A DNA stretch of 64,000 nucleotides from Acidimicrobiia bacterium (GCA_031383405.1 JANMZO010000145.1:1244-65243); one strand, 5' to 3'. Counted from the stretch's first letter, positions 46,868-63,144 are shown. The notes: generated by a model not told the origin, from the letters alone. Numbers and translations: made by a program.

Positions 46868-49800
46868 CTACAGAACCGGCCACTGTGGGCATGTCCTCCG
46901 GTATGAAGCGGCCCCGTGGCTGAGGCGCCATTCCGCCCGCGTAAGGTTGCGTCCAGCCAGTTGACAGGCGGACCTGCGAAGAACGTCACTTTCGAGGTCA
47001 AGACGCACGAGGGGTCCAACGAGACCTCCGACCAGAAGGCCGTCACCTTTCACGGTGAGCTTCGGCCTTTGGGAATCAGCATCGAAGGGTCCCGCAACCG
47101 GTTCGAGTGAATCGCTGTCAAGGAAGCTGCCGTCACCTGTCACCAGGAGGGACCCATCAGCCGTGAAGGCTCTCGGGGTGACGCTGCGCTGCAGCGGGAA
47201 TCGACGGAACCGTTCGACCGTGCCGGTTCCGACGTCGTAGATAGCGAGCCACTGATTTCCGAAGCCGACGGCCAACCGTCGACCGTCGGGGCTGAATTGA
47301 GGCACAATCTGTCCGTCTGTCACGGACCGGTTTGGCGGTGGGAGTATTCGTAGCCGCGTACCGTCGCTCACCTGTCGAATTTCCGTGCGACCGTCCTGGG
47401 TCGAGATCGCCAGGAGTGAACCATCGAGGCTGAGGTCCCATCCGAGACCGAACAGTTCGGCTCGTTCGACCAGGCGCCCGAGGGGAATGGAGTGGATCAC
47501 CGGCGAGCGTGGCGGCGTGCCCTTGGGCACGTCCCACAACTCGATCGTCCGGGTCGGGGTGGTGCGGGCAACCATGACCGCCGTCCCCGTCGGCATGGAC
47601 GCAAGGGGTATCGCGAACATGGGGTCCCATAACGGCTTCCCAGCGGAGGAAACCACGATGGTCCGGTCGCGGCCGTCGGTCCCCTGATAGCCGATTTGGA
47701 GCCGGTCGACGGCGACCCAACCAAAACTGGGCGTGGCGTCTGGTGCGACGTCGGGGAGTGCGACCGCGTGATCCCGGTGGCGTTTGAGGTCGCGGATGTT
47801 CACGGTGTTGCCGTGAACGACGGCACGCAAGGAACCGTCGGGATTGGCGTCTGATGTCGTCTCCAGCGCACTGTCCAATGTGGCACCGGCGGGTGTGAGT
47901 CCGGACCGGATTGACAGTACCGAACCCGCCAACGTCGAGACCGCAAGGCGTGTCTCCTGCCCGCGCGTCGGCAGACCGAAGGCCGGAGACCAGGGAAGTG
48001 ACCCGCCCGGAAGCTGGCGTTCGCTGCCGTCACCAAGGTCAACCAATCGTCCCCCGCCCTTCGACTGGGCGAAGACGAGAAACCGGTGATCCATCGACGT
48101 CGTGCACGCCAGATCGTCGGAGGTGCTGATCTGCCGGGAGGCCACCAAGTCCCAGAACTGCAGCGCGACGGCGCTTTCGCATGGTCGGCCGACCGGGAAG
48201 TAGCTGGGCTGGTCGGACTGTCGACCCTCAGTCCCGACCGTTGTGCGCGATGGGTCCGGCGTTACGACAACGGCCCGCTGATCGCGTTCCCCGGCATACA
48301 GGATTGGCCAACCATGGATCACCTGGAACGTGTGACGTAACTTCTGCAACGGGTTGTCGACAATGAGGCTGCTGAACGTTGCGCCCGCCTGGGAGGCGGA
48401 AAGGTGAACCGACAGGTAGTTGCCGTGCGGGCTGAACGCCACGTCGGTGAAGCTGGTGAACCCCCTCACGACGACTACCGGGTCCGGTCGCGCGAGGCGA
48501 AGGTCGAAAGCCGCAATCGGCAGTTTGTCGGCGGGGTCGGCGGGGTCGGCGGGGTCGGCGGGCGAAAACACCACGACGGCGGAGCTGCCATCCGGCGACA
48601 GCGCGAACGCACCGCTGGCGACCTCGCCGAGTCGGTGGCTGATTTTCGCCGAACCGGGCGTTCCGACCAGCACGCGACCTTTCGGGTCGGCGGCGAGCAT
48701 CACCGGTGCCTTGAGGGCGAAGCGTGGCATTGGAATGGCGCCGATCTCTCCGCCCGGTACCGGGCTCCGGGCGGCACTGCGCCACAAATCGAGCATCACG
48801 GGCCTGGACGCAGACCCCGCAGCGAGGTCGACGGCGACGAGGTAGCGGCCGTCGGGGCTGAAGGCGTCGCCATCCAGATAGGAACCTGTCACGCCTTTGC
48901 CCCTGGTGAGGAGCTTGGTTGTCGTTGCGTCGATGACGGTGTATTCGGCGGGTTTGAATCGCTGCACCACGAAGGTCCGGCCATCGGGTGAAATCTGGAT
49001 GGATGGGGCCAGAGTCCGGCCGGAGGTGCCAGTGCCGGTGACGGTCGGAGACACCTCCCGGTGGACCCGCCGTTCATGCCCGGGCTCAAGGTCCCAGATC
49101 TCCAGTGCGTTGGTCGCTTTCGCGTCATCGGCCGAGGTGACGGCGACGTACCGGTTCGACGCACCGAACTGGATGCTCACCACCCGACCCTCCCACTTGC
49201 CGATCCCTCTGAGGGTCGTGGTGTTCGGGCCGACATCCCACACGTAGAACTGCGGGTCGCCCGCCGGCTCGTGACCGATGGTGGTCGTGAGCCACGCGCC
49301 CGCGGCGACTCGCCGGCCGTCGGCGGTGATCGACGGTTTCGACAGCAGGCCGGGGGCGTTTGGATCCTCCGGAAGGTGCAATGTCCGATCGGTCCCATCA
49401 GCAACGTGAACGATGTCGAGGAGCGTTCCCCAAACCCGCCTTGCAGCTGCACCGGAACGATCGGGGTCGACCCGCTCCATGACTGACGACGCGTCAACGG
49501 CGAGCAGGAGTGAACGGACGAGTTGGTCGTTCACTGAAGCCCTCGCAGTTTCAGCGAGCGAGACGGCGAACGCCATGTCACGCTCCGTTCGTCGGCGTCC
49601 GGACTGTCTGCTCGATGCCACAGCAAGGGTCCCGGCGACGAGTGCCAATGAGATAATGGCGGAGGCGACGGCCAGGATCTGTCGACGCCGACGCCGGATG
49701 CCTTTCTCGGAGGCTTCGACGTAGCGGATCACCGTCGGCGGCACGCCGGTGTGATCGGGCTGGGTCTCAAGCCACGTCCGCGCCTCCTTCGCTGCGTCGG

Positions 49801-51400
49801 GGCCCAGGAGGAAATCGTCGCCTCCGCTCCACGCTGCCGCCCGTTGTTCCAGACGGGTCCGACGGACAAGGTCGTCACGACCCACCCGGACCGCCTCGGC
49901 GAGCCGCGGCCACGACTCGATCAGCCGGTCATGCACCAGGCGGGCCGTGCCGGCATCGGCGACGATGAGCCGTTCATCAGCCAGACGGTCCACGAGAACG
50001 GCTTCCGAAGCCGAGAGAGAATCAAGCGCCACGGGTTTGCTGCCAGCGACCCGATTGTCGGGTATCTGCACGAACCGCATCAGGAGCTGGTTGAGCGCGT
50101 CACTCTGGTCACCGGCGAGGCGGGCTTCGGCCTGCGAGGTGCGCCGACCGATCGCCCCTTCGATCCGGCCCACTTCTTCGTAGTGGTGGATGCCCATGGT
50201 GTCATCGTGCGCCGCGGTGACGCAGTCATACATCTGCTGCAACGTGAAAGCGATCAACGGGAGTGAACGGCCGGGGTCGTCTTCAGCACCCCGCATGGCA
50301 TCGTCGATGATCAGCTGGGTGAGGCCGGGTTCTATCGACAAATCCGCCTTCGACGCCGGCCCCTCGATCACGAGGGCCAGGGCGGAACGGTCGAGAGGGG
50401 CCACCACGAACGGTTCGCGGATCATCGGCCCGATCGGGGCGAGCGGCTGCATCTCGTTCAGCCGGTCCTGCCGGAGGGTGATGACGAGCGTGACGGGAGA
50501 GTGGGCCACGAGACCGGTCGCCATGACCTGGAGGAAGGGGTCGCGGTCGGCTGGGAGGAGCGTGGTCAACTGTTCAGCCTGATCGATCACGATGAGGAGA
50601 CGCCGTGAGCCCGGCCGGGCGTCGAGCAGACGCGATGCCACGCGGGCCAGCCCCTCTGACCGTAGTGTGGAGGCGTCGACCGGATGGCCGCCGGCTGCGG
50701 TCAGTGATGCGGCGAGCCGATCGAGCGGGAACGTTCCAGGCTCGAAGGGTGGAGCAACAACCCAGCCCTTCTGATCGAGGAGTCGAGGCACCACACCGGC
50801 ACGTACCAGTGACGACTTGCCCGCACCCGACGCCCCGATGATGGCGAACAACTGCCCATCGGGTTCAGGGATGGACGGATCGATACGGTCGAGCACCCGG
50901 CGCACGTCAAGGTCGCGACCGAAGAACACGGCAGCGTCGGACTCGTCGAAGGAACGCAGCCCCGGATAAGGGGATCGTCGTCGGTCCCATCGGCCGCGAG
51001 GCACCGAGCCGATGTCGGTCGTAAGTCGTTCCACGAGTTCGCGTGCACTTGATTCGAGATCACGCTCGAGTCGGATGCCCTGCACCTGGGTGAGAATCGG
51101 GTGCGGTGACAGTGGCGACTCGAGATCGAGCGGATAGACGGGCTTCGCGCGTTCGAGCGCCAAAGCGATTTCGGTGTGACACCACATGGAACGCTGCGAG
51201 GCGGCCGAATTCAGGAATACCACGGCCTGACACAGACGCAACTCCCGGAATAACTCGTGTTGCCAGTCGCGGCCGGGCGCGATCCCATCATCGTGATCCG
51301 TGTCGAGGAACACGTCGTGTCCCGCCGCTCGTAAAACCGCAGCCAGCTGTTCGGCGGCTCCTCGCTCCGACGAACTATGACTGATGAAGCAGTCAGCCAT
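46868..51400 (-). CDS. TIR domain / STAND (nSTAND-like) P-loop NTPase / single TM helix / large beta-propeller repeat protein
   Basis: 1510 aa. TIR: 'CFISHSS...VVFLNSAASQRSMWCHTEIALA'. NTPase: 'PYPGLRSFDESDAAVFFGRD', Walker A 'GASGAGKSS', Walker B 'LLIVIDQAEQ'. Hydrophobic helix 'ILAVASAIISLALVAGTLAVAS' at aa 575-596. Many 'SPDGR/TADG' repeat signatures follow. Confidence 0.85.
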   Translation of the reverse strand: MADCFISHSSSERGAAEQLAAVLRAAGHDVFLDTDHDDGIAPGRDWQHELFRELRLCQAVVFLNSAASQRSMWCHTEIALALERAKPVYPLDLESPLSPHPILTQVQGIRLERDLESSARELVERLTTDIGSVPRGRWDRRRSPYPGLRSFDESDAAVFFGRDLDVRRVLDRIDPSIPEPDGQLFAIIGASGAGKSSLVRAGVVPRLLDQKGWVVAPPFEPGTFPLDRLAASLTAAGGHPVDASTLRSEGLARVASRLLDARPGSRRLLIVIDQAEQLTTLLPADRDPFLQVMATGLVAHSPVTLVITLRQDRLNEMQPLAPIGPMIREPFVVAPLDRSALALVIEGPASKADLSIEPGLTQLIIDDAMRGAEDDPGRSLPLIAFTLQQMYDCVTAAHDDTMGIHHYEEVGRIEGAIGRRTSQAEARLAGDQSDALNQLLMRFVQIPDNRVAGSKPVALDSLSASEAVLVDRLADERLIVADAGTARLVHDRLIESWPRLAEAVRVGRDDLVRRTRLEQRAAAWSGGDDFLLGPDAAKEARTWLETQPDHTGVPPTVIRYVEASEKGIRRRRRQILAVASAIISLALVAGTLAVASSRQSGRRRTERDMAFAVSLAETARASVNDQLVRSLLLAVDASSVMERVDPDRSGAAARRVWGTLLDIVHVADGTDRTLHLPEDPNAPGLLSKPSITADGRRVAAGAWLTTTIGHEPAGDPQFYVWDVGPNTTTLRGIGKWEGRVVSIQFGASNRYVAVTSADDAKATNALEIWDLEPGHERRVHREVSPTVTGTGTSGRTLAPSIQISPDGRTFVVQRFKPAEYTVIDATTTKLLTRGKGVTGSYLDGDAFSPDGRYLVAVDLAAGSASRPVMLDLWRSAARSPVPGGEIGAIPMPRFALKAPVMLAADPKGRVLVGTPGSAKISHRLGEVASGAFALSPDGSSAVVVFSPADPADPADPADKLPIAAFDLRLARPDPVVVVRGFTSFTDVAFSPHGNYLSVHLSASQAGATFSSLIVDNPLQKLRHTFQVIHGWPILYAGERDQRAVVVTPDPSRTTVGTEGRQSDQPSYFPVGRPCESAVALQFWDLVASRQISTSDDLACTTSMDHRFLVFAQSKGGGRLVDLGDGSERQLPGGSLPWSPAFGLPTRGQETRLAVSTLAGSVLSIRSGLTPAGATLDSALETTSDANPDGSLRAVVHGNTVNIRDLKRHRDHAVALPDVAPDATPSFGWVAVDRLQIGYQGTDGRDRTIVVSSAGKPLWDPMFAIPLASMPTGTAVMVARTTPTRTIELWDVPKGTPPRSPVIHSIPLGRLVERAELFGLGWDLSLDGSLLAISTQDGRTEIRQVSDGTRLRILPPPNRSVTDGQIVPQFSPDGRRLAVGFGNQWLAIYDVGTGTVERFRRFPLQRSVTPRAFTADGSLLVTGDGSFLDSDSLEPVAGPFDADSQRPKLTVKGDGLLVGGLVGPLVRLDLESDVLRRSACQLAGRNLTRAEWRLSHGAASYRRTCPQWPVL
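48527..48562. repeat. 4 x 9-bp in-frame repeat inside the TIR-STAND gene
   Basis: (GTCGGCGGG)x4 encodes 'PADPADPADPAD' on the minus strand. Confidence 0.9.
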
Positions 51401-51625
51401 GGGAGATCATCACGACGTGGGGTGATGAACGATTGGACCCGATTCGGATGCGTCCGATACGAACTGGCGTCATCTCCTGGGAGGTTACACGAGTGAACCG
51501 GTTGCCTCCGAGAGACCTGAATTTCGTCTGGATAACCGCCGTGTCGCTCCGGATGTCCTTCTCACGTGGACGTATTCGTCAACCGTTGACCGAACGCTCG
51601 AGCCACGACGGGAGTAAGCGCTAGA

Positions 51626-53506
51626 TTGCCCACGATGTCCCCCGGTGCCGAACCATCCGTAACAGGACGCTCGAGCCTCGATTTGAAAGCCCGACGACTC
51701 CGCGACAGGTTGCGGATCGCCGTCCAACCCGTGTTGGCGGGGATCGCCGTCCTCACGCTCGTCTTCGGCAGTATCGGATACCACACGTACCTTTCACGTC
51801 ACGGGCTCCCAGCGGGTCCGGTCGATGTCGCGTACGCCCAACTCGACCTCTTCCGTCTCGGAAACCGCCCGGACGGTGCTCTCCCGTGGACCTTGCAGGT
51901 CGCGAGGGCGCTTGTCCCGATAGTGGTTGGCTACGGGTTCTTTCGAGCGACGTTCGCGCTGTTTCGCGAGCGGGTCGACCGTTTGCGCCTGCAGACCCGA
52001 AGCGGCCAGGTGCTCGTCATTGGGACCGGTCCGGTGGTTCGCGACTTTGCGACCGCTATGCGGCGTCTGCATCCCAAGATTGTCGTCCTGCGGCACGAAC
52101 CGGACACGGCCCTGAGCCCGGGTTCGCTTCTCCGGGGGACGCTGAGCTTCCGGGGAGACGCCACGGTCGCGGAGGTCGTCGAGGAGGCGGGGCTCGGGCG
52201 GGCGACGACCGTGGTTGTCTTAACCGACGACGATTCACTGAATCTGACCCTGGTTCTTCGCGCGCGAAGCCGCGCCGCTGCGGCGGGTGTCGCGGTTCGT
52301 GCCGTTGCTGCCGTGAGCCGCGCTGAGCTCTGCCGGAGCCTACGGGTCGACGCGCTGAACGACGCGAACAACCGGTGCTCCGTCGACTACATCAACACGG
52401 CCGAACTCACCGCCCGCACCATCGTCGCGGAACTTCGACGGGTCCTCGACCCTCCCACCCCGACCCGTTCCCCGGCGGCGCCTGCGCGCCGACTGACCAT
52501 TCTCCTCGACGCACCCCCCGTACTTGCCTCCCAGGTTGCGGTTCGCATCGCCCGCGAGGTTGACAACGTCAACAGTGGATCGAACGATGCTCCGGTGTCG
52601 GTCACGGTGAGCTTTGTCGGGGCCGATGCACCCTTCGCCGTGGAGGAGGCCCGCCGGTGGGCGCCCGGTCTCGACGGGACCATCCAACTCGGCGCAACAG
52701 TGGACATCACCACCGGAGACGACCAGATGACGGCGGTGGCGGGTATTGTCCTCGCGAGGGTCGGCGTCGAGTCGATGGCGGAGGCGATTCGTCTGGCCGG
52801 TCGGATGTCCAATGACGGCATCATCGTCGTGGGTGCAGTCGACGCCACGGCGTTGGCGCTCCTCACCCCGCCCGACGACGCTGCGGGCGCCCGTATCGTC
52901 CTGGTCGATACCGGTTCATGGGCCCGTGACCCGGAGCTCGTCATCGGCGGCACGGTTGAACACATCGCTCGCGCGACCCACGAGAACTACCGGGCTGCAT
53001 ACGTCGAGGCATTGACCCTCGACTCCCGTCCGACGGACAGCTCCTCCCCTTCCCGGCCATCGCTGGAGGTCAAGGACATCGCAGGGTTCTCATCGGGTAT
53101 CCCCACCGTGGGGAAATCCGATCCCGCGTTCGTCGCGTGGCCTCAGCTGGCCCCGCACTTCCGGGAGTCCAACCGGGCGCTGGCCCGCAGTGTCGCGGCG
53201 AAGCTCGCCGCGGTTGGTTGCATGCTCGTACCGAGCGGACTTCCGTCTGTCCGCTGGCGGGACGACGAGATCGAACTGCTGGCTCGGCTCGAGCACATTC
53301 GGTGGTGCGACGAACGTCGTTCGGCCGGTTGGCGTCCGGGGCAGCGTGACCCGGCGAGCCGGACGACACCGTTCCTGGTTCCGTGGGAGGAGCTCGATGA
53401 CTCGGCGAGAGAACTTGATCGGGCGGTCGTGAGGGATCTGCCGCGGTTCCTGGCGGACCTTGGCTATGCCGTGCTCCGGGTCTCCCGACCTGCCGTCGAC
53501 AGGTGA
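51626..53506 (+). CDS. Membrane protein: two TM helices with a degenerate K-channel-like pore loop, RCK/TrkA-N-like Rossmann domain(s), and a C-terminal RyR domain
   Basis: TM1 'VLAGIAVLTLVFGSIGY', loop 'VDVAYAQLDLFRLGNRPDG', TM2 'ARALVPIVVGYGFF', and 'VLVIGTGPVVRDF'. RyR: 'LARLEHIRWCDERRSAGWRPGQRDPASRTTPFLVPWEELDDSARELDRAVVRDLPRFLADLGY'. Start is TTG 51626 or ATG 51635. Confidence 0.7.
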   Translation: MPTMSPGAEPSVTGRSSLDLKARRLRDRLRIAVQPVLAGIAVLTLVFGSIGYHTYLSRHGLPAGPVDVAYAQLDLFRLGNRPDGALPWTLQVARALVPIVVGYGFFRATFALFRERVDRLRLQTRSGQVLVIGTGPVVRDFATAMRRLHPKIVVLRHEPDTALSPGSLLRGTLSFRGDATVAEVVEEAGLGRATTVVVLTDDDSLNLTLVLRARSRAAAAGVAVRAVAAVSRAELCRSLRVDALNDANNRCSVDYINTAELTARTIVAELRRVLDPPTPTRSPAAPARRLTILLDAPPVLASQVAVRIAREVDNVNSGSNDAPVSVTVSFVGADAPFAVEEARRWAPGLDGTIQLGATVDITTGDDQMTAVAGIVLARVGVESMAEAIRLAGRMSNDGIIVVGAVDATALALLTPPDDAAGARIVLVDTGSWARDPELVIGGTVEHIARATHENYRAAYVEALTLDSRPTDSSSPSRPSLEVKDIAGFSSGIPTVGKSDPAFVAWPQLAPHFRESNRALARSVAAKLAAVGCMLVPSGLPSVRWRDDEIELLARLEHIRWCDERRSAGWRPGQRDPASRTTPFLVPWEELDDSARELDRAVVRDLPRFLADLGYAVLRVSRPAVDR

Positions 53507-54465
53507 CCTGGTCTGCTTGTCATCTGTACGAAGTATGCAAGATTAGGACCGTGAGTTCAGTAGCGACACCCGCATGCCTCGATCCCGTGGCCCTCCACGA
53601 GTGGCACCCGGTAAGTGCGATCGACGAGATAACGCCCGGCCGACTGCATTGCACCGTGCTCCTCGGCGAGACCGTCAGCTACACACGTGACTGCTCCGGC
53701 CAGCCCTCCATATGGCTGGGTCGCTTCGATCCCGCACATTCGTCGAAGGGTGGCGAGGTCGATCTCAGCCAGGTCACCGAACGGCTTGCCACGAGGGTCA
53801 AGTTCGGTTACCTGTGGACGACGCTGGGTAGCCCCGACCACGAGATCTTCGACATCCCTGAATGCGACGAAGCTGACCGCCGGATTCTCAACGGCGGGAG
53901 TCTGATGGTCAACGTTTCAGCCCCGAGGGCGGTCGAGAACTTTCTTGACATGGGCCACTTTCCGTATGTTCACACCGGGCTCCTCGGCATCGAGCCTCGA
54001 ACCGAGGTCGTCGAGTACAACGTCGAAACCACCGACGATCAGGTCCTCGCAACCGGGTGCAAGTTCTACCAACCGGTGGCGGCCGCCAGTGCCGTCGGCG
54101 GTCAGGTAACCGACTACACCTATCGTGTCCCGCATCCATACTGCGTGATGCTCTACAAGTCGGTGCACGCGGATCCGACCCGTATGGACGTCATCGCCCT
54201 TTTCAACCAACCGATGACCGAGGAACGCATCCGGGCCCACAACTTCCTCGCCATGGTCGATACGGTGAGCTCCGACACCACTCTCAGGCATTTTCAGCAG
54301 CTGATCTTCGGACAGGACAAAACGATTCTGGAGAGTCAGTACCCCAAGCGACTTCCCCTCGACCCTCGGGCCGAGACTCCGATCAGAGCAGACAAAAGCG
54401 CCATCCACTACCGCCGCTGGCTTTCGGCCAAGGGCCTCACATACGGCGTTATCGCGGCTGCGTGA
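53503..54465 (+). CDS. Rieske-less non-haem-iron oxygenase catalytic subunit (NdmC-like architecture); start 53503 or GTG 53551
   Basis: Fe motif 'VENFLDMGHFPYVHTG' and 'IFGQDKTILESQ'. The N-terminal ~100 aa align positionally with a Rieske domain but lack the CxH...CxxH ligands. Confidence 0.75.
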   Translation: MTWSACHLYEVCKIRTVSSVATPACLDPVALHEWHPVSAIDEITPGRLHCTVLLGETVSYTRDCSGQPSIWLGRFDPAHSSKGGEVDLSQVTERLATRVKFGYLWTTLGSPDHEIFDIPECDEADRRILNGGSLMVNVSAPRAVENFLDMGHFPYVHTGLLGIEPRTEVVEYNVETTDDQVLATGCKFYQPVAAASAVGGQVTDYTYRVPHPYCVMLYKSVHADPTRMDVIALFNQPMTEERIRAHNFLAMVDTVSSDTTLRHFQQLIFGQDKTILESQYPKRLPLDPRAETPIRADKSAIHYRRWLSAKGLTYGVIAAA

Positions 54466-54476
54466 TCGGACAGGAA

Positions 54477-56267
54477 ATGACCGCCCCGATGACCCAGTGG
54501 TACCCGGTCGCCCGGAGCGACGACCTCCCCCGACGGCACGTCTATCAGGGACTTCTGCTTGGACGCGAACTCGCCATATGGAGGGCCGATGACGGTTATG
54601 TCAACGTCTGGGAGAACCGGTGCCTTCATCGTGGTGTCCGCCTGACCATCGGCCACAACGAAGGCTGGGAACTTCGCTGCCAATACCACGGCTGGCGCTA
54701 CGCGAACCGGTCCGCGGGCTGCACTTACATTCCGGCGCACCCGGCTGATTCCCCGGCGCGCACAATCTGCAACGCGACCTTCCCGGTGATCGAACGGTAC
54801 GGACTCGTGTGGACCGCCGAAGCACCGATCGGCGGGCCACCTGAAGTTGCGGGTCTGGAAGCTGGATCCCCGTTTGTTCTGCGCAGCCTGCCCGTCAACG
54901 TCGAGCCTTCGGTCGTGCTCGACGCGCTGGCTGGGTACCGCTTCGCCCCTTCGTCGGCGCTGATCGACGCCACGCGTGGCCCGGGTTCTGACACGGATTC
55001 CGAGCTGTCCGTGACCAACCGGGGCGACAGTTGGATCGAACTCACTGCAACACTGGGTGGGGAGTCGAACTCTGTGGTGTTCTTCGTGCAGCCCGTAGAT
55101 TCGGCGAGGTCGGTGATACGAAGTGTGCTTAGCATTTCACCGAACGTCGGATCGATGCTTTCGGTGCTGCGCTACCACGCCGGAAGACTCACCAGATTTC
55201 GTGATGCGCTTGAACACGACGCGGCGAAACGACAACTGCCCGAAGCCATGGTGCCGCGGATCGGTCAGGTCTCACTGGAACTTTCGACCATGCCTGAACG
55301 GTCTCCCGACGGCCGCGCAGGGGCTCTTCTGCGGGTGGTCGTGGCTCGAAAGCGAATGGTCGGCGATGACATAGTTTCTTTGGAACTCGAACCGGTCGAC
55401 GGCCAACTGCCGACCTTCCAGCCCGGGGCCCACATCGATGTGCACTTGCCGAACGGGGTTGTTCGCCAATACTCGCTCGTCAACGGACCCGGTGAGCTGA
55501 GTCACTATGTCATTGGCGTGAAGCTCGAACCGCAATCGCGTGGAGGATCGTCATGGCTGCACGACGCCGTATCGGAAGGTGATCTTCTCGCCATCTCGGA
55601 ACCGCGCAACAACTTCCCGCTGCGCCGAGACTCCTTTCACACGATGCTGATCGCCGGCGGTATCGGCGTCACGCCACTTCTGGCCATGGCTCAGGCCCTC
55701 CACGTGAGTTCTCTCGCTTTCGAACTGCACTACTTCGCCCAGTCGACGGAACACCTGGCCTTCCCGGGAGTACTTGACCGGTTGGGTGACCGGGTCACCG
55801 TCCATCTCGGGCTGACTCCCACCGGCACCGGCGAGGCGCTGCGTTCGCTGCTCGCGAATCCGATGGAAGGCCGCCATGTCTACATCTGTGGCCCCGGCCC
55901 GATGCTCGACACCGCTCGGACGACGGCGGCCGCGGCCGGATGGTCCGATGAGACGGTGCATTTCGAATACTTCAAAAACTCGACGCCGCTCGATACATCG
56001 ACATCGTTCGAAGTGGAACTTGCCCGTTCAGCGCTGACCTTGACGGTGCCCGAGGGTGCGTCGATCATGGAAGTGCTCCGGGCGAACGGTGTTGCGGTGC
56101 CGTCGTCGTGTGAACAGGGAGCGTGCGGCACCTGCGTCGTCGCGGTTCTGGCTGGTACGCCCGAGCATCAAGACGTGTATCTCAACGACTCGGAACGTAC
56201 CGCCGGAGACCGGATGACCATCTGCGTCTCGCGGTCGCGGACCCCTCGACTCGTGCTCGACATTTAG
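54477..56267 (+). CDS. Rieske [2Fe-2S] domain fused to a PDR/VanB-type reductase (FMN/NAD + plant-type ferredoxin), NdmD-like architecture
   Basis: ATG 54477 after GGACAGGAA. Rieske 'CLHRG...CQYHGW', reductase 'RQYSLVNGP' and 'IAGGIGVTPLLAM', C-terminal 'CEQGACGTCVV...ICVS'. The track ORF (54057) includes an unlikely 140-aa upstream extension. Confidence 0.8.
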   Translation: MTAPMTQWYPVARSDDLPRRHVYQGLLLGRELAIWRADDGYVNVWENRCLHRGVRLTIGHNEGWELRCQYHGWRYANRSAGCTYIPAHPADSPARTICNATFPVIERYGLVWTAEAPIGGPPEVAGLEAGSPFVLRSLPVNVEPSVVLDALAGYRFAPSSALIDATRGPGSDTDSELSVTNRGDSWIELTATLGGESNSVVFFVQPVDSARSVIRSVLSISPNVGSMLSVLRYHAGRLTRFRDALEHDAAKRQLPEAMVPRIGQVSLELSTMPERSPDGRAGALLRVVVARKRMVGDDIVSLELEPVDGQLPTFQPGAHIDVHLPNGVVRQYSLVNGPGELSHYVIGVKLEPQSRGGSSWLHDAVSEGDLLAISEPRNNFPLRRDSFHTMLIAGGIGVTPLLAMAQALHVSSLAFELHYFAQSTEHLAFPGVLDRLGDRVTVHLGLTPTGTGEALRSLLANPMEGRHVYICGPGPMLDTARTTAAAAGWSDETVHFEYFKNSTPLDTSTSFEVELARSALTLTVPEGASIMEVLRANGVAVPSSCEQGACGTCVVAVLAGTPEHQDVYLNDSERTAGDRMTICVSRSRTPRLVLDI

Positions 56268-56271
56268 TGCA

Positions 56272-56334
56272 CTGACGCGAAAATGGCCACCGATCTTCAC
56301 GTCCTCGAGACGCCCGTGCCACCGGACAAAATGA
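56272..56334 (+). repeat. Single copy of the dispersed intergenic repeat, locus C
   Basis: CTGACGCGAAAATGGCCACCGATCTTCACGTCCTCGAGACGCCCGTGCCACCGGACAAAATGA: about 7 differences from locus A unit 2. It starts 5 nt after the reductase stop. Confidence 0.85.
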
Positions 56335-56374
56335 CTGAGATGCACGAGGCCGGAGACCGTGAGACCCTGAAAAC

Positions 56375-58189
56375 ATGATCAAGCTCTACGACTACGAACT
56401 TTCGGTCAACTGCTATAAGCAACGGCTGATGATGAACATCCTCAACGTTCCCTTTGCGTCGGTCCTGATCGATTTCTTTCCCGGCTGGGAACACAAGGGC
56501 GAGGCCTTCGCGGCAATCAACCCGCTCGGTCACATTCCGGTGATCGACGACGACGGCTACATCCTTCGAGATGCCCATGCGATTCTCGTGTATCTGGCCA
56601 CCAGATACGACCCGGGCGGTCCTTGGTATCCGACCCGCGAGCCGAAGGTCCTCGGGGAGGTGGCGTCTTGGCTGCTCTTCGCCGAGGGTACGACCAACAC
56701 CGCGTCGGCGGCGCGACTCCACGACACCCTTGACTACCCCTTCGACATCGATACCGTCCGGGCCGGTGCCCATCGGTTGTTTCGCGTGCTCGATGAGCAC
56801 CTGTGGTTCCACGAACAACAGGGCTGCGACTGGGTCGCGTCATCGCCTCACCCGACGATTGCCGACCTGGCCCTCTTCCCGGACATCATGCTCTCCGAAC
56901 AGGGCGGAATCAGCCTGGTCGACTATCCGGCATTGCGCCGCTGGACCGACCGGTTCAAGCGGGTTCCGGGATTCAGCGTGATGCCCGGCATCTACCCGGC
57001 GGCTCCGGATACGTCCGCACAACGAGAGCCCGCCGCGTCGGGCGTACCCGGCCGCGCGGTCAGTATTGCAAGACGTGATGATCCCGACTCCGGAAACGAC
57101 GGTCCCGTGACCCTCGCTTCGGAGGTTGCCCCTGCGTGTTCCCGGGGACCGGACCCGATAGTGAACGAATGGTTTCCGGTGGCCTCGGGTTCGGAGGTAA
57201 CTCCCGGATCGATGCACGCGTTCATGTTGCTCGATGAGCGGTTCGTTCTCCTCTGCGGAAACGACGGCGAGGTTCTCGTGACCCGCGACCGATGTTCGCA
57301 CCGGGGCGCCCAACTGAGTCTCGGGTCCTTCGACGGGGATCGGCTTCAATGCGTCTACCACGGCTGGCAGTTCGATACCGGCGGTGTCTGCCGATTCCAA
57401 CCGGCCCACCCGGATGTGACACCTCCGGAGATAGCCGGGCTGCGACCCGTACACGCAAGATTCGCCTTTGATCTGTGGTGGGTGTGTATCGGCGACGAGC
57501 CACGAAATCTCCCTCTCTACGGAGCATTCGACGGCTATCCCGGTCGCACCACGATCTGTGCTCCGAAGCGGGTGCTGTCGTCAGGTCCTCGTGTTGTGGA
57601 GAACTTTCTTGACATTGCGCACTTCCCGTTCGTTCACGGTGGGTACCTGGGGCGGGTTCCTGAAACCAACGTCGACGACTACGACGTAAGCATCGTCGAT
57701 GGCGAGTTGTTGGCGACGAACTGTCTTTTCTTTCAGCCCCAACCGGGTCCGGCCGGTGGCGGTGGCGGTGTTGTTAGGTACACATATGGTGTGTCGCACC
57801 CGTACGCAGCTCGCCTTGTCAAGATTCCGAGCGAGGCCGACGGCGGCGCCCGTGAGGGTTTTGAGATCATGCTCGTGGTGAGCCCCGAGAGCGAGTGTTC
57901 GAATCGGGCGTGGATGATCACGACGGTCTACAACCCTGATGCCGACCTTTCCGCCTTCAACGCCTTCGGTGCGTTGATCTTTGACCAGGATGTCGACATC
58001 GTGGAATCGCAGCGTCCGTCGCTGCTCCCGCTGGCTCCCACTGATGAAGTGCATCAACGGGCCGATCGGATGAGTCTCGCCTATCGCCGCTGGCTGCTCG
58101 ACCGGGGAATCCGATACGGAACGTCGTTGAACACGGCCGAGCGCCGGAACGGAACCACCGTTCGGCTACCGAACGTTTCGCTTTCATGA
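56375..58189 (+). CDS. Glutathione S-transferase-like domain fused to a complete Rieske non-haem-iron oxygenase
   Basis: GST N-terminal domain 'MIKLYDYELSVNCYKQRLMMN...INPLGHIPVIDDDGYILRDAHAILVYLA'. Rieske 'CSHRG...CVYHGW'. Fe motif 'VENFLDIAHFPFVHGG' and 'IFDQDVDIVESQ'. Confidence 0.8.
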   Translation: MIKLYDYELSVNCYKQRLMMNILNVPFASVLIDFFPGWEHKGEAFAAINPLGHIPVIDDDGYILRDAHAILVYLATRYDPGGPWYPTREPKVLGEVASWLLFAEGTTNTASAARLHDTLDYPFDIDTVRAGAHRLFRVLDEHLWFHEQQGCDWVASSPHPTIADLALFPDIMLSEQGGISLVDYPALRRWTDRFKRVPGFSVMPGIYPAAPDTSAQREPAASGVPGRAVSIARRDDPDSGNDGPVTLASEVAPACSRGPDPIVNEWFPVASGSEVTPGSMHAFMLLDERFVLLCGNDGEVLVTRDRCSHRGAQLSLGSFDGDRLQCVYHGWQFDTGGVCRFQPAHPDVTPPEIAGLRPVHARFAFDLWWVCIGDEPRNLPLYGAFDGYPGRTTICAPKRVLSSGPRVVENFLDIAHFPFVHGGYLGRVPETNVDDYDVSIVDGELLATNCLFFQPQPGPAGGGGGVVRYTYGVSHPYAARLVKIPSEADGGAREGFEIMLVVSPESECSNRAWMITTVYNPDADLSAFNAFGALIFDQDVDIVESQRPSLLPLAPTDEVHQRADRMSLAYRRWLLDRGIRYGTSLNTAERRNGTTVRLPNVSLS

Positions 58190-58232
58190 ATTTGACGCCC
58201 GACTCGGCGCGAGGGGGAACTGTTCCAGTAGC

Positions 58233-59411
58233 TTGTGCGCCATGACTACCACTTCACCTTTCCGACCCCGTCGGATGGCGCTCTTCGGCGCTATCCTTTC
58301 GCTATCACTCATGGCGGCCGGCTGCTCAAGTGACAAGAGCTCCGATACGACCGTCGCTGCTGAAACCACTGCCGTTGCCGCCGACACGACTGCGGCCGCC
58401 GAAACTGCGGCACCTGAAGAAACTGCGGCCGTTGAAACCGCGGCAGCCACCGAAACTGTGGCTGCAGCAGAAACCGCCGCGGCGGCCCCCGCCGCCGCCG
58501 GAGCACCGAAGCTCGGCATGATCTACTCCGCTGAATGGGCCGACGGCTCATGGGGCGAAGCCGCCTTCAACGGGGCGAACGAACTCAAAAAGGCCGGTCT
58601 CGTTTCCGATATCCAGTTGCAGGAGAACGTCCCTCCGGGTGCCGAAGCCGAGCGTGCACTTCGCGCCCTCGCCGAAGCGGGCTTCAACCCGATCATCGCC
58701 CACTCCTTCAATTACGGTGACGACGTGAAGAAGGTGGCTCCCGACTTCCCGAACACCATCTTCTCCTACGCAGGCGGATTTGGCGATGTCGCCAAGAACG
58801 TCGGCGATTACGACCAGCCCTTCTTCGAAGCCTCGTACCTGTCCGGCATCCTGGCTGCGGGGGTAGAGGGCAAGGGCAAAGTGGCCGGAGCCGGTGGATT
58901 CGAAATCCCCGTCTGCTACTCGATGTACGAAGCATTCCTCGCCGGTGCCAAAGAAGTCCTGCCGGCGACTACCGGATCCTTTGTCGCCGTTGGTGACTGG
59001 TACGACGTTCAGAAGGCCAAAGAAGCCGCTCTCGCCCAGAAGTCGGCTGGCGCGACCATGTTCGTCGGATGCGGGCAGGGCCCAACCTTCGGTCAGATCG
59101 AAGCGGCGAATGACGGTGGAGATGTTTCGACCGGGTACGTCGGCGACATGTCGAAGGTCGGCAAGTCGGTGCTTTCGTCGTTCTCCTGGCGTCTCGACAA
59201 GGTCTTCGCCTTGATGGTGGCCGATGTCGCTGCAGGGAAGAAGGACGCGCAGTACTACTCCGTCAGCCTCGGCAACGGCGGCATGGACATGATCATCAGC
59301 CCCGATTGGGCTTCGAAGATTCCGGCCGACACCATGAAGCTGTACGACCAGCGTCTCGGTGAAATCAAGGCCGGTACGTTCAAGGTACCGCTGGTCACGA
59401 AGCGCGCGTAG
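58233..59411 (+). CDS. BMP-family (PnrA/Med-like) ABC transporter substrate-binding lipoprotein
   Basis: Lipobox 'LMAAGCSS', an Ala/Thr/Glu-rich linker, and 'GFNPIIAHSFNYGD' / 'GGFEIPVCYSMYEAFLAGAKE' typical of the BMP family. Confidence 0.8.
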   Translation: MCAMTTTSPFRPRRMALFGAILSLSLMAAGCSSDKSSDTTVAAETTAVAADTTAAAETAAPEETAAVETAAATETVAAAETAAAAPAAAGAPKLGMIYSAEWADGSWGEAAFNGANELKKAGLVSDIQLQENVPPGAEAERALRALAEAGFNPIIAHSFNYGDDVKKVAPDFPNTIFSYAGGFGDVAKNVGDYDQPFFEASYLSGILAAGVEGKGKVAGAGGFEIPVCYSMYEAFLAGAKEVLPATTGSFVAVGDWYDVQKAKEAALAQKSAGATMFVGCGQGPTFGQIEAANDGGDVSTGYVGDMSKVGKSVLSSFSWRLDKVFALMVADVAAGKKDAQYYSVSLGNGGMDMIISPDWASKIPADTMKLYDQRLGEIKAGTFKVPLVTKRA

Positions 59412-59481
59412 GCGCCGAGGTCCATCACGACAGCTGTGGGGAACAACGCCGTTTTCAGGCAATGAAGGTTCGTAGTGGGCA

Positions 59482-59513
59482 GATGCCGGGCGGATGAACG
59501 TCCGCTCGGCATC
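59482..59513 (+). terminator. Intercistronic stem-loop after the binding-protein gene (possible partial terminator or stabiliser)
   Basis: GATGCCGGGCGGA-tgaacg-TCCGCTCGGCATC (13-bp stem, one mismatch) followed by TTCGAGTTTCC. Confidence 0.35.
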
Positions 59514-59556
59514 TTCGAGTTTCCGACCGGTTGCGGTCATTGGAGGGTGCCAAGTA

Positions 59557-61065
59557 ATGGGTGTAGCCAACGGCACGTCGCTGGTCGAGATGCGTGGCAT
59601 ACATCGTCGCTTCGGGGACACGCACGCCCTCCGGGGGGTGGATCTGACGCTGCGAGCGGGTGAGATCCACGCGCTGCTCGGATCAAACGGAGCCGGCAAG
59701 ACAACGCTCGTGCGAATTCTGGCGGGCCTCGATCGGCCAGACGAAGGTACGGTCAGCGTCGATGGTCAACTGGTCGAGCGGTTTGACCCGAAACGGCTTC
59801 GGTCGATGGGCGTTGCCCTGGTGCAGCAACATTTCACCCTGGTGCCGACCCTCACGGCGTCGGAGAACCTTGTGCTTGCCCGCCCCGACGGATGGCGGCG
59901 TGGATCCGCTCGGAACGAATCGGCGCGTTTGAAACGGTTGATTGCCCAGACGGGGTTGTCGGTCCGAGATGATGTGCCGGCGGGTCGGTTGTCGGTGGGA
60001 GAGCAGCAGCGTCTTGAACTACTGCGCGCCCTCGACGCCGATGCGCGTGTGTTGCTGTTGGATGAGCCGACGGCGGTGCTCACCGATCACGAGGCGGAGT
60101 CGCTTCTGTCGGTGTGTCGAAGCTTGGCTGCCGAGGGGCGTGCGCTCGCCTTTATAAGTCACCGGCTCGCTGAAGTGTTCGACGGCGCCGACCGGGTGAC
60201 GGTCCTGGCGGAGGGCCGCGAAGTCCTACGGGACGAACCGGTCACGGGTCATAGCCGATCGAGTCTGGCCAGCGCCATGATCGGTCACGAGAGTTCGGGA
60301 ACCTTCACAGATCGGGGTGGTCGCGAAGGCACCCGCGCTGAAGGTCGACTCGTGCTGACGGGAATCGAACTCGGTCGGTTGAAGGGCATCAACCTGTCCG
60401 TGGCCGGCGGAGAGATTGTGGGCGTCGCCGGCGTCGACGGCAACGGTCAGTCTGACCTTGAAGCGGCTGTTTCGGCGCGGGCGGAGGTGAAGGTCGGTCG
60501 TGTAGAACTCGACGGCCTGGCGCTGATCCCCGGGAAGCCCCGAAGTCGGCGAACCCGCGGCCTGGCCTACATTCCGTCGGACCGTTACCAGTTCGGTCTG
60601 ATCGGCTCGATGGACCTGTCGGACAATTTGGATCTTGGCCGGGTTCCAAGATGGAGAAAGTCCCGAGCCACGCGTCGGGCGGGGAGTGTGAGAGAACTGG
60701 CGTTGTGGGACGTTCGCACGTCCGGTCCGGACGCGAGGGCTTCGTCGTTGTCGGGTGGAAACGCCCAGAAGCTGGTGCTCGCTAGGGAGCTCGACGGCAC
60801 ACCGAAAGCGGTACTTGCGTGTTACCCGACCCGCGGCCTTGACCCGGGTGCCGCTGACAGTGTCGCAGCGCGCCTGGTCCGCTGCGCAAGCGAAGGCGCC
60901 GCGGTGCTGTGGATTGGAGCTGAGCTCGATGAGCTTCTCGCGGTTGCCGATCGGATCGTCGTGCTCGCCGGTGGACAGCTGCTCGGGCCGTTCTTCCCTC
61001 CCTATGACCGTGGAGCGATCGGGCTTGCGATGGCCGGCGAGTACGAGGGGGTGGTGGCTCGATGA
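59557..61065 (+). CDS. ABC transporter ATP-binding protein (duplicated ATPase, sugar/nucleoside type)
   Basis: ATG 59557 after GGAGGG. Walker A 'GSNGAGKTTL', signature 'LSVGEQQRLE', and a second domain 'LSGGNAQKLVLAREL'. Confidence 0.9.
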   Translation: MGVANGTSLVEMRGIHRRFGDTHALRGVDLTLRAGEIHALLGSNGAGKTTLVRILAGLDRPDEGTVSVDGQLVERFDPKRLRSMGVALVQQHFTLVPTLTASENLVLARPDGWRRGSARNESARLKRLIAQTGLSVRDDVPAGRLSVGEQQRLELLRALDADARVLLLDEPTAVLTDHEAESLLSVCRSLAAEGRALAFISHRLAEVFDGADRVTVLAEGREVLRDEPVTGHSRSSLASAMIGHESSGTFTDRGGREGTRAEGRLVLTGIELGRLKGINLSVAGGEIVGVAGVDGNGQSDLEAAVSARAEVKVGRVELDGLALIPGKPRSRRTRGLAYIPSDRYQFGLIGSMDLSDNLDLGRVPRWRKSRATRRAGSVRELALWDVRTSGPDARASSLSGGNAQKLVLARELDGTPKAVLACYPTRGLDPGAADSVAARLVRCASEGAAVLWIGAELDELLAVADRIVVLAGGQLLGPFFPPYDRGAIGLAMAGEYEGVVAR

Positions 61066-62174
61066 GCACCGTGACGGCGGACCAGCCGGGACCTCCCCCG
61101 AGAACTCCCCCGGGAGGATTCGTTGCCGGTCTTGGCCGCCGGGCCACGTCAGGGGGCATGGTCTCGCAGGTCCTCGTGCCGGTCACCGCGGTGCTAGCGG
61201 CGCTCCTCGTGGGCGGTGTGCTGATCGCGCTCGACGGTGTAAACCCCCTTTCGGCTTACCGTGAAATTCTGCGCGCGGTGTTTCTCGGCAAACGCGGGCT
61301 GTCTGACACAGCGACGGCCGCAACACCGTTGATCCTCGTCGGACTGGGATACTCGATTGCGTACCGGGCTCGCGTGTTTACGATCGGTGGCGAAGGTCAG
61401 TACCTGATCGGGGCTATCGCCGGCACGGCATGGGTGACCGCGGGCGGGGTCCGCAACTGGCCGGGCTTTTCGTTGATCGCAACCGGGCTTCTCGTCGCCG
61501 CGATTGGCGGTGCTGTCTGGGGCGGAATCGCCGGTTGGCTGCAGACCCGGTTCGGAGCCAACGTGGTCATCTCCAGCCTCATGCTCGTCTATGTGGCCGA
61601 TTCCGTTCTGCAGTGGGCTGTGCGTACGGGCATTCGCGATCCAAGCTCGTTTGTCCCCAACAGCCGACCGCTCCTTGCGGCGGAACTTCCGAGGCTTCCC
61701 GGAACCAGCACGCATATCGGCTTTGCCATCGCCGTGGTGCTCGTGCCGATGGCGACGGTTTTCATGGCCCGCCACCGCGGCGGGTTCCGGGTGATCGCGA
61801 CCGGCTTCAATCCGAATGCGCTCGACGCCAACGAGATCAGCAAGAAAAAGATCGTGATGCTGGTCATGTTGATCGCCGGTGGGTTGGCCGGCCTCGCCGG
61901 TATGGTCGAAACCGCCGGGGCCAGTGGCCGCCTTGGCGCTGCCGCTTCGGTGGGCTTCGGGTTCGAGGCCATCATCGTGGCGATGATCGGCCGTCTTCAC
62001 CCGATCGGTGTGGCGATTGCCGCCCTCGGTCTGGCCGCTCTCACGATTGGGTTTGAGTCGACCCAGCGGGTCCTTGATGTGCCCTCGACGCTCGTCGGCG
62101 TGATTACAGCCCTCATAGTTGTGTTTGTCGTGATTGGTGATGCCTTGGCCAATCGGGGAAGGGAGGGCCGTTGA
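61062..62174 (+). CDS. ABC transporter permease
   Basis: 370-aa polytopic protein whose start overlaps the ATPase stop. Confidence 0.85.
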   Translation: MSTVTADQPGPPPRTPPGGFVAGLGRRATSGGMVSQVLVPVTAVLAALLVGGVLIALDGVNPLSAYREILRAVFLGKRGLSDTATAATPLILVGLGYSIAYRARVFTIGGEGQYLIGAIAGTAWVTAGGVRNWPGFSLIATGLLVAAIGGAVWGGIAGWLQTRFGANVVISSLMLVYVADSVLQWAVRTGIRDPSSFVPNSRPLLAAELPRLPGTSTHIGFAIAVVLVPMATVFMARHRGGFRVIATGFNPNALDANEISKKKIVMLVMLIAGGLAGLAGMVETAGASGRLGAAASVGFGFEAIIVAMIGRLHPIGVAIAALGLAALTIGFESTQRVLDVPSTLVGVITALIVVFVVIGDALANRGREGR

Positions 62175-62175
62175 G

Positions 62176-63048
62176 ATGAATGTGTTGTTCACGATTGCGA
62201 CGCTGGAGGCGGCGATACGGCTTTCGATTCCGGTGGCTCTAGCGGCACTCGGTGCGCTGCTTTCGGAGCGCACCGGCGTGTTGAACCTCGGGCTCGAAGG
62301 AATGATGCTGTCGGGTGCCTTCGCCGGCTACACGGCGAACGAGATGACGGGCTCGCCGTGGGTCGGACTACTCGCCGGAATCGTGGTCGGGTGTGGATTT
62401 GGCGCGTTGCTGGCGTTGGCGGTCGTGACGATTCGCGCGAATCAGGTGGTTACCGGAATTGCCTTCACCCTGCTTGCCTCGTCGGGCACGACGTACCTGT
62501 TTCAGCTTAAGTACTCGATCGGACAGAAACCGCCGCGGGTGGAGCGGCTGGGTATGCCACCACTTGTCGCGATCACATTGGCGTGTGTCGCCGCTTTGTG
62601 GTTCTTGTTCCAACGCACCACGGTGGGGCTCGCGATGGCGGCCACGGGCGAGTCGCCGGGGGCGGCCGACGCGCTTGGGTATCGCGTCGTTCGGTTGCGT
62701 TGGATCGCGACGACCATCGGTGGTGGTCTCGCCGGGCTCGGTGGGGCCGCGTTGACATGCGGTCCGCTCGGGTTGTTCATCCGAAACGTCACCGCCGGAC
62801 GCGGGTGGGTGGCCCTGGCCCTTGTGGTGTTCGCCGGTTGGCGGCCGGGTACAGCAGTTGCCGGTGCGTTTCTTTTCGGATTGTGCGATGCGAGTCAGCT
62901 CCGCCTTCAGGGAACCAAAACCGAAATTCCCTACGAGGTTTTTCTTGCTCTCCCCTACATGGTCACCCTCGCGGCTTTGGTGCTTCGCGCCCGGGCCAGT
63001 CGGACACCGGCAGCGCTCGCCGTCGCGTTTGTTCGAGGCGCGCATTGA
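62176..63048 (+). CDS. ABC transporter permease
   Basis: ATG 62176, 1 nt after the preceding TGA, reading 'MNVLFTIATLEAAIRLSIPVALAALG'. The track ORF starts at 62134. Confidence 0.85.
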   Translation: MNVLFTIATLEAAIRLSIPVALAALGALLSERTGVLNLGLEGMMLSGAFAGYTANEMTGSPWVGLLAGIVVGCGFGALLALAVVTIRANQVVTGIAFTLLASSGTTYLFQLKYSIGQKPPRVERLGMPPLVAITLACVAALWFLFQRTTVGLAMAATGESPGAADALGYRVVRLRWIATTIGGGLAGLGGAALTCGPLGLFIRNVTAGRGWVALALVVFAGWRPGTAVAGAFLFGLCDASQLRLQGTKTEIPYEVFLALPYMVTLAALVLRARASRTPAALAVAFVRGAH

Positions 63049-63144
63049 CGCCGCTCGTTGGCGCCCTTTTTGGTGCCGCGCGTTTGAGGTCCGGCTAAGG
63101 ATGCAATCCTCGGCCCTTTGGCTCAAGGCCCGCCGCGCGTATCG

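Follow-up and report, generated by a model that had tools for sequence, protein, structure and literature searches.

The 64,000-nucleotide stretch of DNA from an Acidimicrobiia bacterium analyzed here (GCA_031383405.1, JANMZO010000145.1:1244-65243; hereafter the window) carries seven consecutive genes on the plus strand at positions 53551-63048. The first three, designated a, b, and c, encode a Rieske oxygenase system related to NdmC, NdmD, and NdmE of Pseudomonas putida CBB5. The other four encode a binding lipoprotein and an ATP-binding cassette (ABC) transporter. Successive genes are separated by gaps of 11, 107, 43, and 82 bp, and the last two junctions are overlaps of 4 and 41 bp. A first-pass annotation of the window had described a, b, and c, and all three open reading frames (ORFs) were found on the plus strand with the features it gave. 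We consider it likely (probability about 0.7) that 53551-63048 is a single operon for an Ndm-type class IA Rieske monooxygenase system with its own importer. Its proposed role would be to take up and oxidize a nitrogen-ring compound.

Domain content and ligand sets of the three oxygenase-system proteins

Gene a (53551-54465, plus strand) encodes an NdmC-like Rieske-less oxygenase of 304 aa. A Pfam scan of the protein returned VanA_C alone (2e-20) and no Rieske domain, and the CxH...CxxH motif is absent. The segment D133-x2-H136-x4-H141 (53947-53973) contains the bridging Asp and the two Fe(II) His ligands, and in the FGQD motif (54307-54318) D256 is the carboxylate Fe ligand. D133, H136, H141, and D256 were invariant in 59 family members. 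Selection thus acts on the Fe site and on the Asp through which electrons enter. Alignment with Rieske-bearing relatives revealed a remnant of the Rieske fold at 53551-53826. The start of the fold (DPVALHEWHPV...LLGE, first strands) and its end (FGYLWTTLG, last strand) are retained, and about 34 residues comprising both Rieske ligand loops are missing in frame from a and from every family member examined. Within residues 1-95, no Cys or His was conserved among the 59 aligned members. The best 120 of 2254 homologues were 248-347 aa long, and none of them had a Rieske Pfam domain. The AlphaFold2 (AF2) model of a (pLDDT 83) predicted beta strands at residues 19-56 and 81-90, and a Foldseek search with this model led to SxtT/GxtA (E 6e-18, TM 0.73-0.78). 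The alignment had been set beforehand as the check that could overturn the reported absence of Rieske ligands, and it confirmed their loss. The possibility that they are hidden behind another start or a frameshift was rejected, since the deletion is internal and in frame.

Gene b (54477-56267, plus strand) encodes an NdmD-like reductase of 596 aa with Rieske (3e-18), Fer2, and NAD_binding domains according to Pfam. The Rieske ligands C49, H51, C68, and H71 (54621-54689) were invariant in 60 homologues, indicating that this center is under selection. The C-terminal 314 residues (283-596) matched 2pia end to end (6e-63). They comprise an FMN- and NAD(H)-binding module of the phthalate dioxygenase reductase type (55323-55991, assigned by alignment to 2pia residues 7-321) and a plant-type [2Fe-2S] ferredoxin domain (55992-56264; Fer2 3.8e-14; Cys motif at 56109-56225). 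The motifs RQYS at residue 330, GGIGVTP at residue 394, and CxxxxCxxC...C are present. The ferredoxin domain also matched that of CBB5 NdmD (6icm_D) with 1.5e-19.

Between the Rieske domain and the reductase, at about residues 116-255 (54822-55241), b has no 2-His motif, and no His was conserved in this part among the 60 homologues. We modeled residues 1-290 with AF2 using the 60 homologues (pLDDT 90.2, pTM 0.87). In Foldseek, the model matched whole SxtT/GxtA alpha subunits (E 3.5e-17, TM 0.61-0.67), with alignments of 292-316 columns to targets of approximately 320 residues. On the basis of this model, the N-terminal half of b is best read as a whole but degenerate alpha subunit, which has kept its Rieske center and lost its iron site, and its middle part as a shrunken, metal-free remnant of an oxygenase catalytic domain. 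This half would then be the mirror image of a. When the excised middle part was compared by hhalign with the catalytic domains of the a and c families, the matches were weak (P 0.0023 over 36 columns, and 0.2), so that the remnant assignment rests on the structure model. VNVEPSVVLDALAGYRF of b aligned with VNVSAPRAVENFLDMGHFPYVH, and the match with P 0.0023 paired VVFFVQPVDSARSV with IALFNQPMTEERIRA.

The N-terminal module of b was also matched as a separate unit upstream of a plain reductase, with the GST (glutathione S-transferase) gene still present, for example in loci L018, L022, L023, L038, L044, L056, L072, and L085. Homologues of 200-280 aa exist (e.g., P0294, P0317, P0289, and P0336), and the Rieske-plus-remnant module therefore appears to occur as a free-standing gene. 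The split system thus seems to come in fused and unfused forms. A 615-aa protein from a Polaromonas metagenome-assembled genome (MAG; P0207) had VanA_C, DmmA-like_N, NAD_binding, and Fer2 matches and no Rieske Pfam match. Judged by these domains, it is an oxygenase catalytic domain fused to a reductase, possibly an intermediate or an alternative fusion that bears on the origin of NdmD-type proteins.

Gene c (56375-58189, plus strand) encodes a protein of 604 aa in which an NdmE-like GST is fused to a complete Rieske oxygenase (Pfam order GST_N/GST_C, Rieske, VanA_C). The GST domain (56375-57004) is followed by a linker of approximately 48 residues (57005-57148) and by the oxygenase module (57149-58186; SxtT 9e-43, NdmA 1e-33). 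A motif scan located the Rieske ligands C307/H309/C326/H329 (57293-57361), the Fe motif D413/H416/H421 (57611-57637), and FDQD with D539 (57980-57991). Residues 259-604 hence combine a Rieske CxH-x(15-17)-CxxH motif, a 2-His-1-carboxylate site, and a bridging Asp in one chain, which makes them a complete alpha subunit. The full ligand set is present neither in a, which has no cluster, nor in the N-terminus of b, which has no metal site.

The GST domain of c shares the motifs LYDYELSxNCYK, IPV, RDAxAIL, SAARLHD, HPTxADIA, and YPAxRRW with the GSTs of the ndm clusters. In the G-site, Ser10 and IPV are kept, and the usual Glu-Ser is replaced by Asp-Ala (RDAxAIL) in 20 of the 21 aligned NdmE-like sequences, those of the ndm clusters included; the lone exception (L037) has Asp-Ser.

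Comparison with related loci revealed how the fusion arose. In a 70%-identical relative (L005, GCA_009886115.1), a and b are followed by separate genes for a GST (229 aa) and a complete oxygenase (368 aa), and then by genes for Bmp, the ATPase, and two permeases. The stop codon of the GST gene overlaps the start codon of the oxygenase gene, so that the two genes share 4 bp (ATGA). The linker of c still resembles the C-terminal tail of the L005 GST, and together with the comparison to L007 this shows that c arose by read-through of the former GST stop codon of an NdmE-like gene into the next gene. Loci L007, L008, and L089 (GCA_031381685.1) have kept the fusion and the same gene order. Full-length homologues with GST, Rieske, and VanA_C domains were found in only six protein clusters (P0121-P0126, 76-97% identity), and of the 150 best matches from a library of 1.84 billion cluster representatives, not one covered both halves of c. 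The fusion is lineage-restricted.

In its domain content, the system agreed with the first-pass annotation. That annotation had described a as a mononuclear-Fe catalytic domain without Rieske ligands, b as an intact Rieske domain followed by a middle part without the 2-His motif, a flavin/NAD reductase, and a plant-type ferredoxin, and c as a GST-like domain joined to a complete Rieske oxygenase. Its phrase "complementary domain losses" is a fair description of a and b, given that the model of b residues 1-290 superposes on whole alpha subunits. Absent from it were the points that c is an NdmE-like gene fused with a neighboring complete oxygenase gene, that this oxygenase is not of the NdmA/B type, and that an ABC importer forms part of the operon.

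Relation to ndm clusters, distribution, and the importer

As reference ndm clusters we used the best four loci (L009-L012) from a one-genome-per-species scan with the CBB5 NdmD ferredoxin domain (6icm_D); they come from Burkholderia ambifaria, Paraburkholderia caffeinitolerans, Caballeronia hypogeia, and Cupriavidus sp. CBB5 itself was not among the scan results, and these orthologous clusters stand in for its NdmC, NdmD, and NdmE. Their NdmD ferredoxin domains are 71-73% identical to the CBB5 sequence in the Protein Data Bank (PDB), and the NdmA proteins of L009-L011 are about 80% identical to CBB5 NdmA (6ick) over residues 35-341 (NdmA of L012 is incomplete at the locus end). Each reference locus contains NdmA and an NdmB-like gene, followed by genes for the Rieske-less oxygenase, the Rieske-bearing reductase, and the GST in the order C-D-E. 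Identity between a and the NdmC-like products is 45% over 295 aa (E 1e-78). Protein b shares 41-42% identity with the NdmD-like products over its full length of approximately 599 aligned residues (E 1e-133), and for the GST domain of c the identity to the NdmE-like products is 51-54% over 210 aa (E 1e-74). These alignments show genuine homology of a to NdmC, of b to NdmD, and of the GST domain to NdmE, in line with the first-pass annotation, which had called the system Ndm-type. The hallmarks of NdmCDE-type systems are all present: one oxygenase lacks a Rieske center, the reductase has an additional one at its N-terminus, and a GST-like partner is encoded beside the reductase, here in fused form. 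NdmA- or NdmB-type N1/N3 demethylases were not found in the cluster; its sole complete oxygenase is about 26% identical to them in the catalytic domain and belongs to another clade.

The position of the c oxygenase was analyzed in a simple distance tree of catalytic domains (neighbor joining, 202 columns, 200 bootstraps, midpoint rooting). The c oxygenase grouped with all Rieske-less proteins (bootstrap 82), SxtT joined this clade next (91.5), and NdmA and NdmB formed a separate clade (100). Monophyly of the Rieske-less group itself was poorly supported (24.5). The catalytic domain of c is 39% identical to that of a, 37-40% to NdmC-like proteins, and 26% to NdmA/B. Tree and identities together indicate that c is not the counterpart of NdmA/B; among Rieske-bearing oxygenases, it is the one closest to the NdmC family. 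Further complete Rieske oxygenases from Acidimicrobiia-type clusters (L005 16065-17171, minus strand; L024 7350-8447; L065 4396-5556) fall into a third clade (bootstrap 93) and share only 19-26% identity with the others; no member of this clade was seen in the last 950 bases of the window.

NdmCDE-like clusters are common and not unusual as such, which the first-pass annotation did not mention. According to a 2015 review, BLAST with ndmCDE retrieved homologous clusters without assigned function in 18 other organisms, mostly Sinorhizobium and Mesorhizobium, as reported in 2013 (PMC4408171). In the literature searched, we found no function for ndmCDE homologues outside caffeine degradation beyond this 2013/2015 statement of their existence. 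In our data, the a-b-GST order or variants of it recurred in more than 30 loci, most of which were retrieved with the NdmD-like ferredoxin query. In all loci examined, the a-type catalytic domains lacked Rieske ligands. The domain E-values and the recurring neighborhood are far beyond chance.

The gene content around the triad varies. Locus L004 has a-b-GST. In the Rhizobiales-type loci L002 and L003, a GntR gene and genes for two Rieske-less oxygenases accompany b and GST, an S-formylglutathione hydrolase gene (TIGR02821, 450 bits) comes after them, and there is a divergent BMP transporter; the CBB5 cluster likewise has an S-formylglutathione hydrolase (PMC4408171). In L090, a-b-GST is found with a complete oxygenase gene in convergent orientation and with a BMP transporter. 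Because the triad is repeatedly accompanied by such an oxygenase and a BMP transporter, in layouts that differ between loci (L005, L090, L020/L024, and L065), we argue that they are functionally linked to it.

In the window, the importer genes follow c directly. The first encodes a BMP/PnrA-family substrate-binding lipoprotein (58233-59411, plus strand; Bmp 4.6e-26; lipobox LMAAGC). It is followed by an ATPase gene with two ABC domains (59494-61065; ABC_tran 1.4e-45, two stretches) and two permease genes, 61062-62174 (BPD_transp_2 2.7e-30; 4-bp overlap with the ATPase gene) and 62134-63048 (BPD_transp_2 2.7e-36), all on the plus strand. A weak terminator-like hairpin (63049-63063, plus strand) lies straight after the second permease gene. 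As an operon end it is only suggestive, because terminator-like sites in this region occur at chance frequency. Promoter and terminator predictions across the operon region were at chance level, and an Rfam scan of 51000-64000 with E up to 0.1 detected no riboswitch and no other RNA.

The best solved relatives of the binding protein are AtzT (6pi5, 8.7e-28), 4p98, and Brucella 3s99. AtzT copurifies with guanine (dissociation constant, 110 nM), and adenine was modeled in the 3s99 site (PMC6834077). When the AtzT site was mapped on the alignment, the stacking residues were kept (Tyr45 is replaced by Trp, and Trp194 is the same), as were Ser97-Phe98. The guanine-edge residues Glu165, Asn218, and Asn220 correspond to Val, Cys, and Gln. 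Because of these replacements, guanine itself is an unlikely ligand, and "purine-like" is only a lead. The residues of the site suggest that the ligand is probably a different flat heterocycle, less polar than guanine. A purine-like base as the substrate of the operon is accordingly proposed with reserve, at somewhat less than even chances.

Proposed electron path and competing explanations

NdmCDE is a complex of approximately 360 kDa with 3:3:3 stoichiometry, and NdmC, NdmD, and NdmE alone are reported to form the active complex (PMC10380055, PMC4408171). NdmC, the catalytic N7-demethylase, is insoluble without NdmD and NdmE and requires the Rieske center of NdmD. NdmD is also the free partner that serves NdmA and NdmB. 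NdmE is structural and is treated as a noncatalytic assembly factor, a role that is postulated (PMC10380055, PMC4408171).

By analogy, the following route can be proposed for the operon. The BMP-family lipoprotein and the ABC transporter would import a planar nitrogen heterocycle. In b, electrons would pass from NAD(P)H via FMN to the C-terminal plant-type [2Fe-2S] center. From there, one branch would lead to the N-terminal Rieske center of b, on the pseudo-alpha-subunit, and then in trans, via the conserved Asp133, to the Fe(II) site of a. The other branch would lead from the plant-type center to the Rieske center of the c oxygenase, as NdmD does with NdmA and NdmB. The NdmE-like GST domain would be a noncatalytic assembly factor, and since it is fused to c it would tie the second oxygenase to the a-b complex. 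Each oxygenase would carry out one O2-dependent monooxygenation, for which N-demethylation with formaldehyde release is the likeliest candidate and ring or side-chain hydroxylation the alternative. That b serves a within an NdmCDE-like complex is quite probable by this analogy. N-demethylation as the reaction has about even odds; we favor it because of the NdmC precedent and the formaldehyde-detoxification gene in L002/L003, and we retain hydroxylation because of the closeness to SxtT/GxtA and because the window has no formaldehyde-detoxification gene.

Several observations weigh against the interpretation of the locus as an Ndm-type demethylase operon. Protein a is only 45% identical to the NdmC-like proteins and belongs to a different subclade, so the substrate is not transferable from NdmC. 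Among solved structures, those nearest to a and c come from SxtT and GxtA, two C-hydroxylases rather than demethylases. The guanine-edge residues of AtzT are replaced in the binding protein, and the window next to the operon contains no formaldehyde-detoxification gene, which concerns the demethylation part. The remnant catalytic domain of b is weakly supported when sequence comparison is considered by itself. The structure of NdmCDE was still unsolved in May 2026 (PMC13237722). Finally, two orphan a-type genes (L001 10001-10909 and L091 8001-8909; 57-62% identical) have no Rieske-bearing reductase or GST within 8-10 kb. Both orphans adjoin Mrp/ApbC-type and HesB-type Fe-S assembly genes.

SxtT and GxtA are cyanobacterial biosynthetic enzymes of the saxitoxin pathway. 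The same architecture may perform an SxtT/GxtA-like C-hydroxylation of a guanidinium compound or another nitrogen-rich alkaloid, rather than N-demethylation of a purine-like base. By both sequence and fold, these proteins are the best solved-structure matches for a, c, and the N-terminus of b, and SxtT is the next to join the clade (see the tree above); the missing formaldehyde-handling gene and the altered AtzT site also fit such a reaction. However, the catalytic domains are only 26-30% identical to SxtT, a homologous cluster has the S-formylglutathione hydrolase, and NdmC, the only characterized member of the Rieske-less clade, is an N-demethylase (PMC4408171, PMC10380055). We regard C-hydroxylation as rather unlikely.

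A different arrangement of the subunits was also considered, in which a and the oxygenase module of c would form a heterotrimeric alpha3 ring, so that the Rieske center of c feeds the iron of a and the Rieske center of b is redundant or regulatory. In alpha3 oxygenases, electrons cross between neighboring subunits. The catalytic domains of a and c are mutual nearest Rieske-less and Rieske-bearing relatives (39% identity, joint clade with bootstrap 82), and a- and c-type genes are encoded together in L005, L007, L089, and L090. This arrangement has little to recommend it in view of the many clusters that contain a, b, and GST and lack a complete oxygenase (L004, L013, L014, L033, and L037), the selection on the Rieske center of b evident from its invariant ligands in 60 homologues, and the report that NdmC, NdmD, and NdmE alone are active (PMC4408171, PMC10380055).

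One indel would be enough to fuse the two L005 genes with their 4-bp overlap. Even so, it is highly improbable that the c fusion stems from faulty assembly or sequencing, or from a recent frameshift, and that two separate proteins are made: the fused frame occurs in six protein clusters (76-97% identity), their sequences come from independent assemblies (ENA, Logan, and NCBI), and their linkers differ in length and sequence. Equally improbable is that a is a catalytically dead structural subunit, as loss of the cofactor domain and the insolubility of NdmC alone (PMC10380055) could suggest, since its 2-His-1-carboxylate triad and bridging Asp are invariant across the 59 homologues and NdmC is catalytic (PMC4408171, PMC10380055).

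Returning to the Ndm-type operon, a wider joint reading can be formulated, although we consider it doubtful. In it, NdmE-type GSTs would be general docking modules for Rieske alpha subunits, and a trimer of c would add three GSTs to a core of composition (a)3(b)3. This would give a single supercomplex with C3 symmetry, whose six active sites are fed by shared reductases and in which b contributes a pseudo-alpha-subunit derived from a whole oxygenase. The module would catabolize imported methylated purine-like bases. That three GST domains supplied by trimeric c would fit the 3:3:3 stoichiometry of NdmCDE is speculation. In the literature searched, such a nutrient route for methylated purines was not found in Acidimicrobiia or Rhizobiales.

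The NdmCDE kind of system is already known and widespread, and what is new at this locus is the lineage-restricted GST-oxygenase fusion variant. A natural covalent link between GST and oxygenase provides a concrete hypothesis for what the GST binds, and it is a useful lead because the NdmCDE structure is unsolved (PMC13237722). A second new element, based on the AF2 model, is that the reductase appears to carry a whole degenerate alpha subunit at its N-terminus and not just a Rieske domain. This points to a possible origin of the split and to a possible way in which the complex is put together. The third is that a complete oxygenase from the sister clade and a BMP importer repeatedly accompany the triad, which makes up a five-part module of split oxygenase, Rieske-bearing reductase, GST, complete oxygenase, and importer. 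The enzyme family has thousands of members in soil Rhizobiales and Acidimicrobiia, and naming the substrate would give a large uncharacterized family a function.

Surroundings of the operon and comparison with known systems

The window has a G+C content of approximately 62% and contains chromosomal housekeeping genes (dnaB with an intein, murJ, a penicillin-binding protein gene, and panB). Close homologues carry the labels Acidimicrobiales, Acidimicrobiaceae, or Acidimicrobiia MAGs, which makes the actinobacterial host named in the first-pass annotation plausible. Upstream of a, the gene at 51626-53506 (plus strand) has a product of 626 aa that combines an NAD-binding TrkA_N domain with a RyR domain at the C-terminus; it had no PADLOC match. 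Only 45 bp separate the stop of this gene from the start of a, and the operon may therefore be cotranscribed with it. Relatives of the operon have other upstream genes. Divergent from this gene is 46868-51400 (minus strand), which encodes a 1510-aa protein with an N-terminal TIR_2 domain (1.9e-19), an nSTAND1 NTPase domain (1.4e-82), and C-terminal WD40/beta-propeller repeats, and which had weak PADLOC matches to ThsB-type TIR proteins. From its domains, the product resembles TIR-STAND sensors that act in antiviral defense or cell death. Further upstream, 43731-46424 (plus strand) encodes the DnaB replicative helicase, split by an intein with a LAGLIDADG homing-endonuclease domain. Downstream of the operon are a 73-aa ORF (63145-63366, minus strand) with a CDGSH-like Cys/His pattern (...CRCGASKNKPFCDASH...) and the start of a family III CoA-transferase gene (CaiB/Frc-like, 2e-32; 63481-64000, plus strand), which runs past the window end.

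Among known systems, SxtT and GxtA resemble the operon's oxygenases as compact alpha-only enzymes of approximately 330 residues with a VanA_C-type catalytic domain. In contrast to a, however, both solved chains keep the Rieske CxH...CxxH motif, the catalytic domains are 26-30% identical, and their PDB entries show neither a GST partner nor a Rieske-bearing reductase. The class IA pairs (phthalate dioxygenase with its reductase, and VanAB) share VanA_C oxygenases and a reductase of the 2pia type, which corresponds to the C-terminal 314 residues of b. In these pairs, the oxygenase has the intact Rieske domain and the reductase has none, and there is no GST. With NdmA and NdmB, which work with NdmD, c has in common that it is a complete alpha3-type oxygenase of the same fold, probably served by the same type of reductase, but its catalytic domain is only about 26% identical and falls outside their clade (bootstrap 100 for the NdmA/B side). 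The binding protein belongs to the same BMP family as AtzT and Brucella 3s99 and retains the aromatic sandwich and the Ser-Phe motif, whereas the polar guanine-edge residues are replaced.

To our knowledge, NdmCDE is the only characterized Rieske oxygenase in which the Rieske center has moved to the reductase and a GST-like protein is needed. The operon shares with NdmCDE of P. putida CBB5 (Summers et al. 2013) the Rieske-less oxygenase, the Rieske-bearing reductase, the GST-like partner, and the order C-D-E. It differs in that the GST is fused to a complete oxygenase, in that a lies outside the NdmC subclade of the caffeine clusters, and in that NdmA and NdmB are absent from the operon. The importers also differ, a BMP-type ABC transporter being encoded here and a purine permease being listed for Pseudomonas sp. 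in the gene table of a review (PMC10380055).

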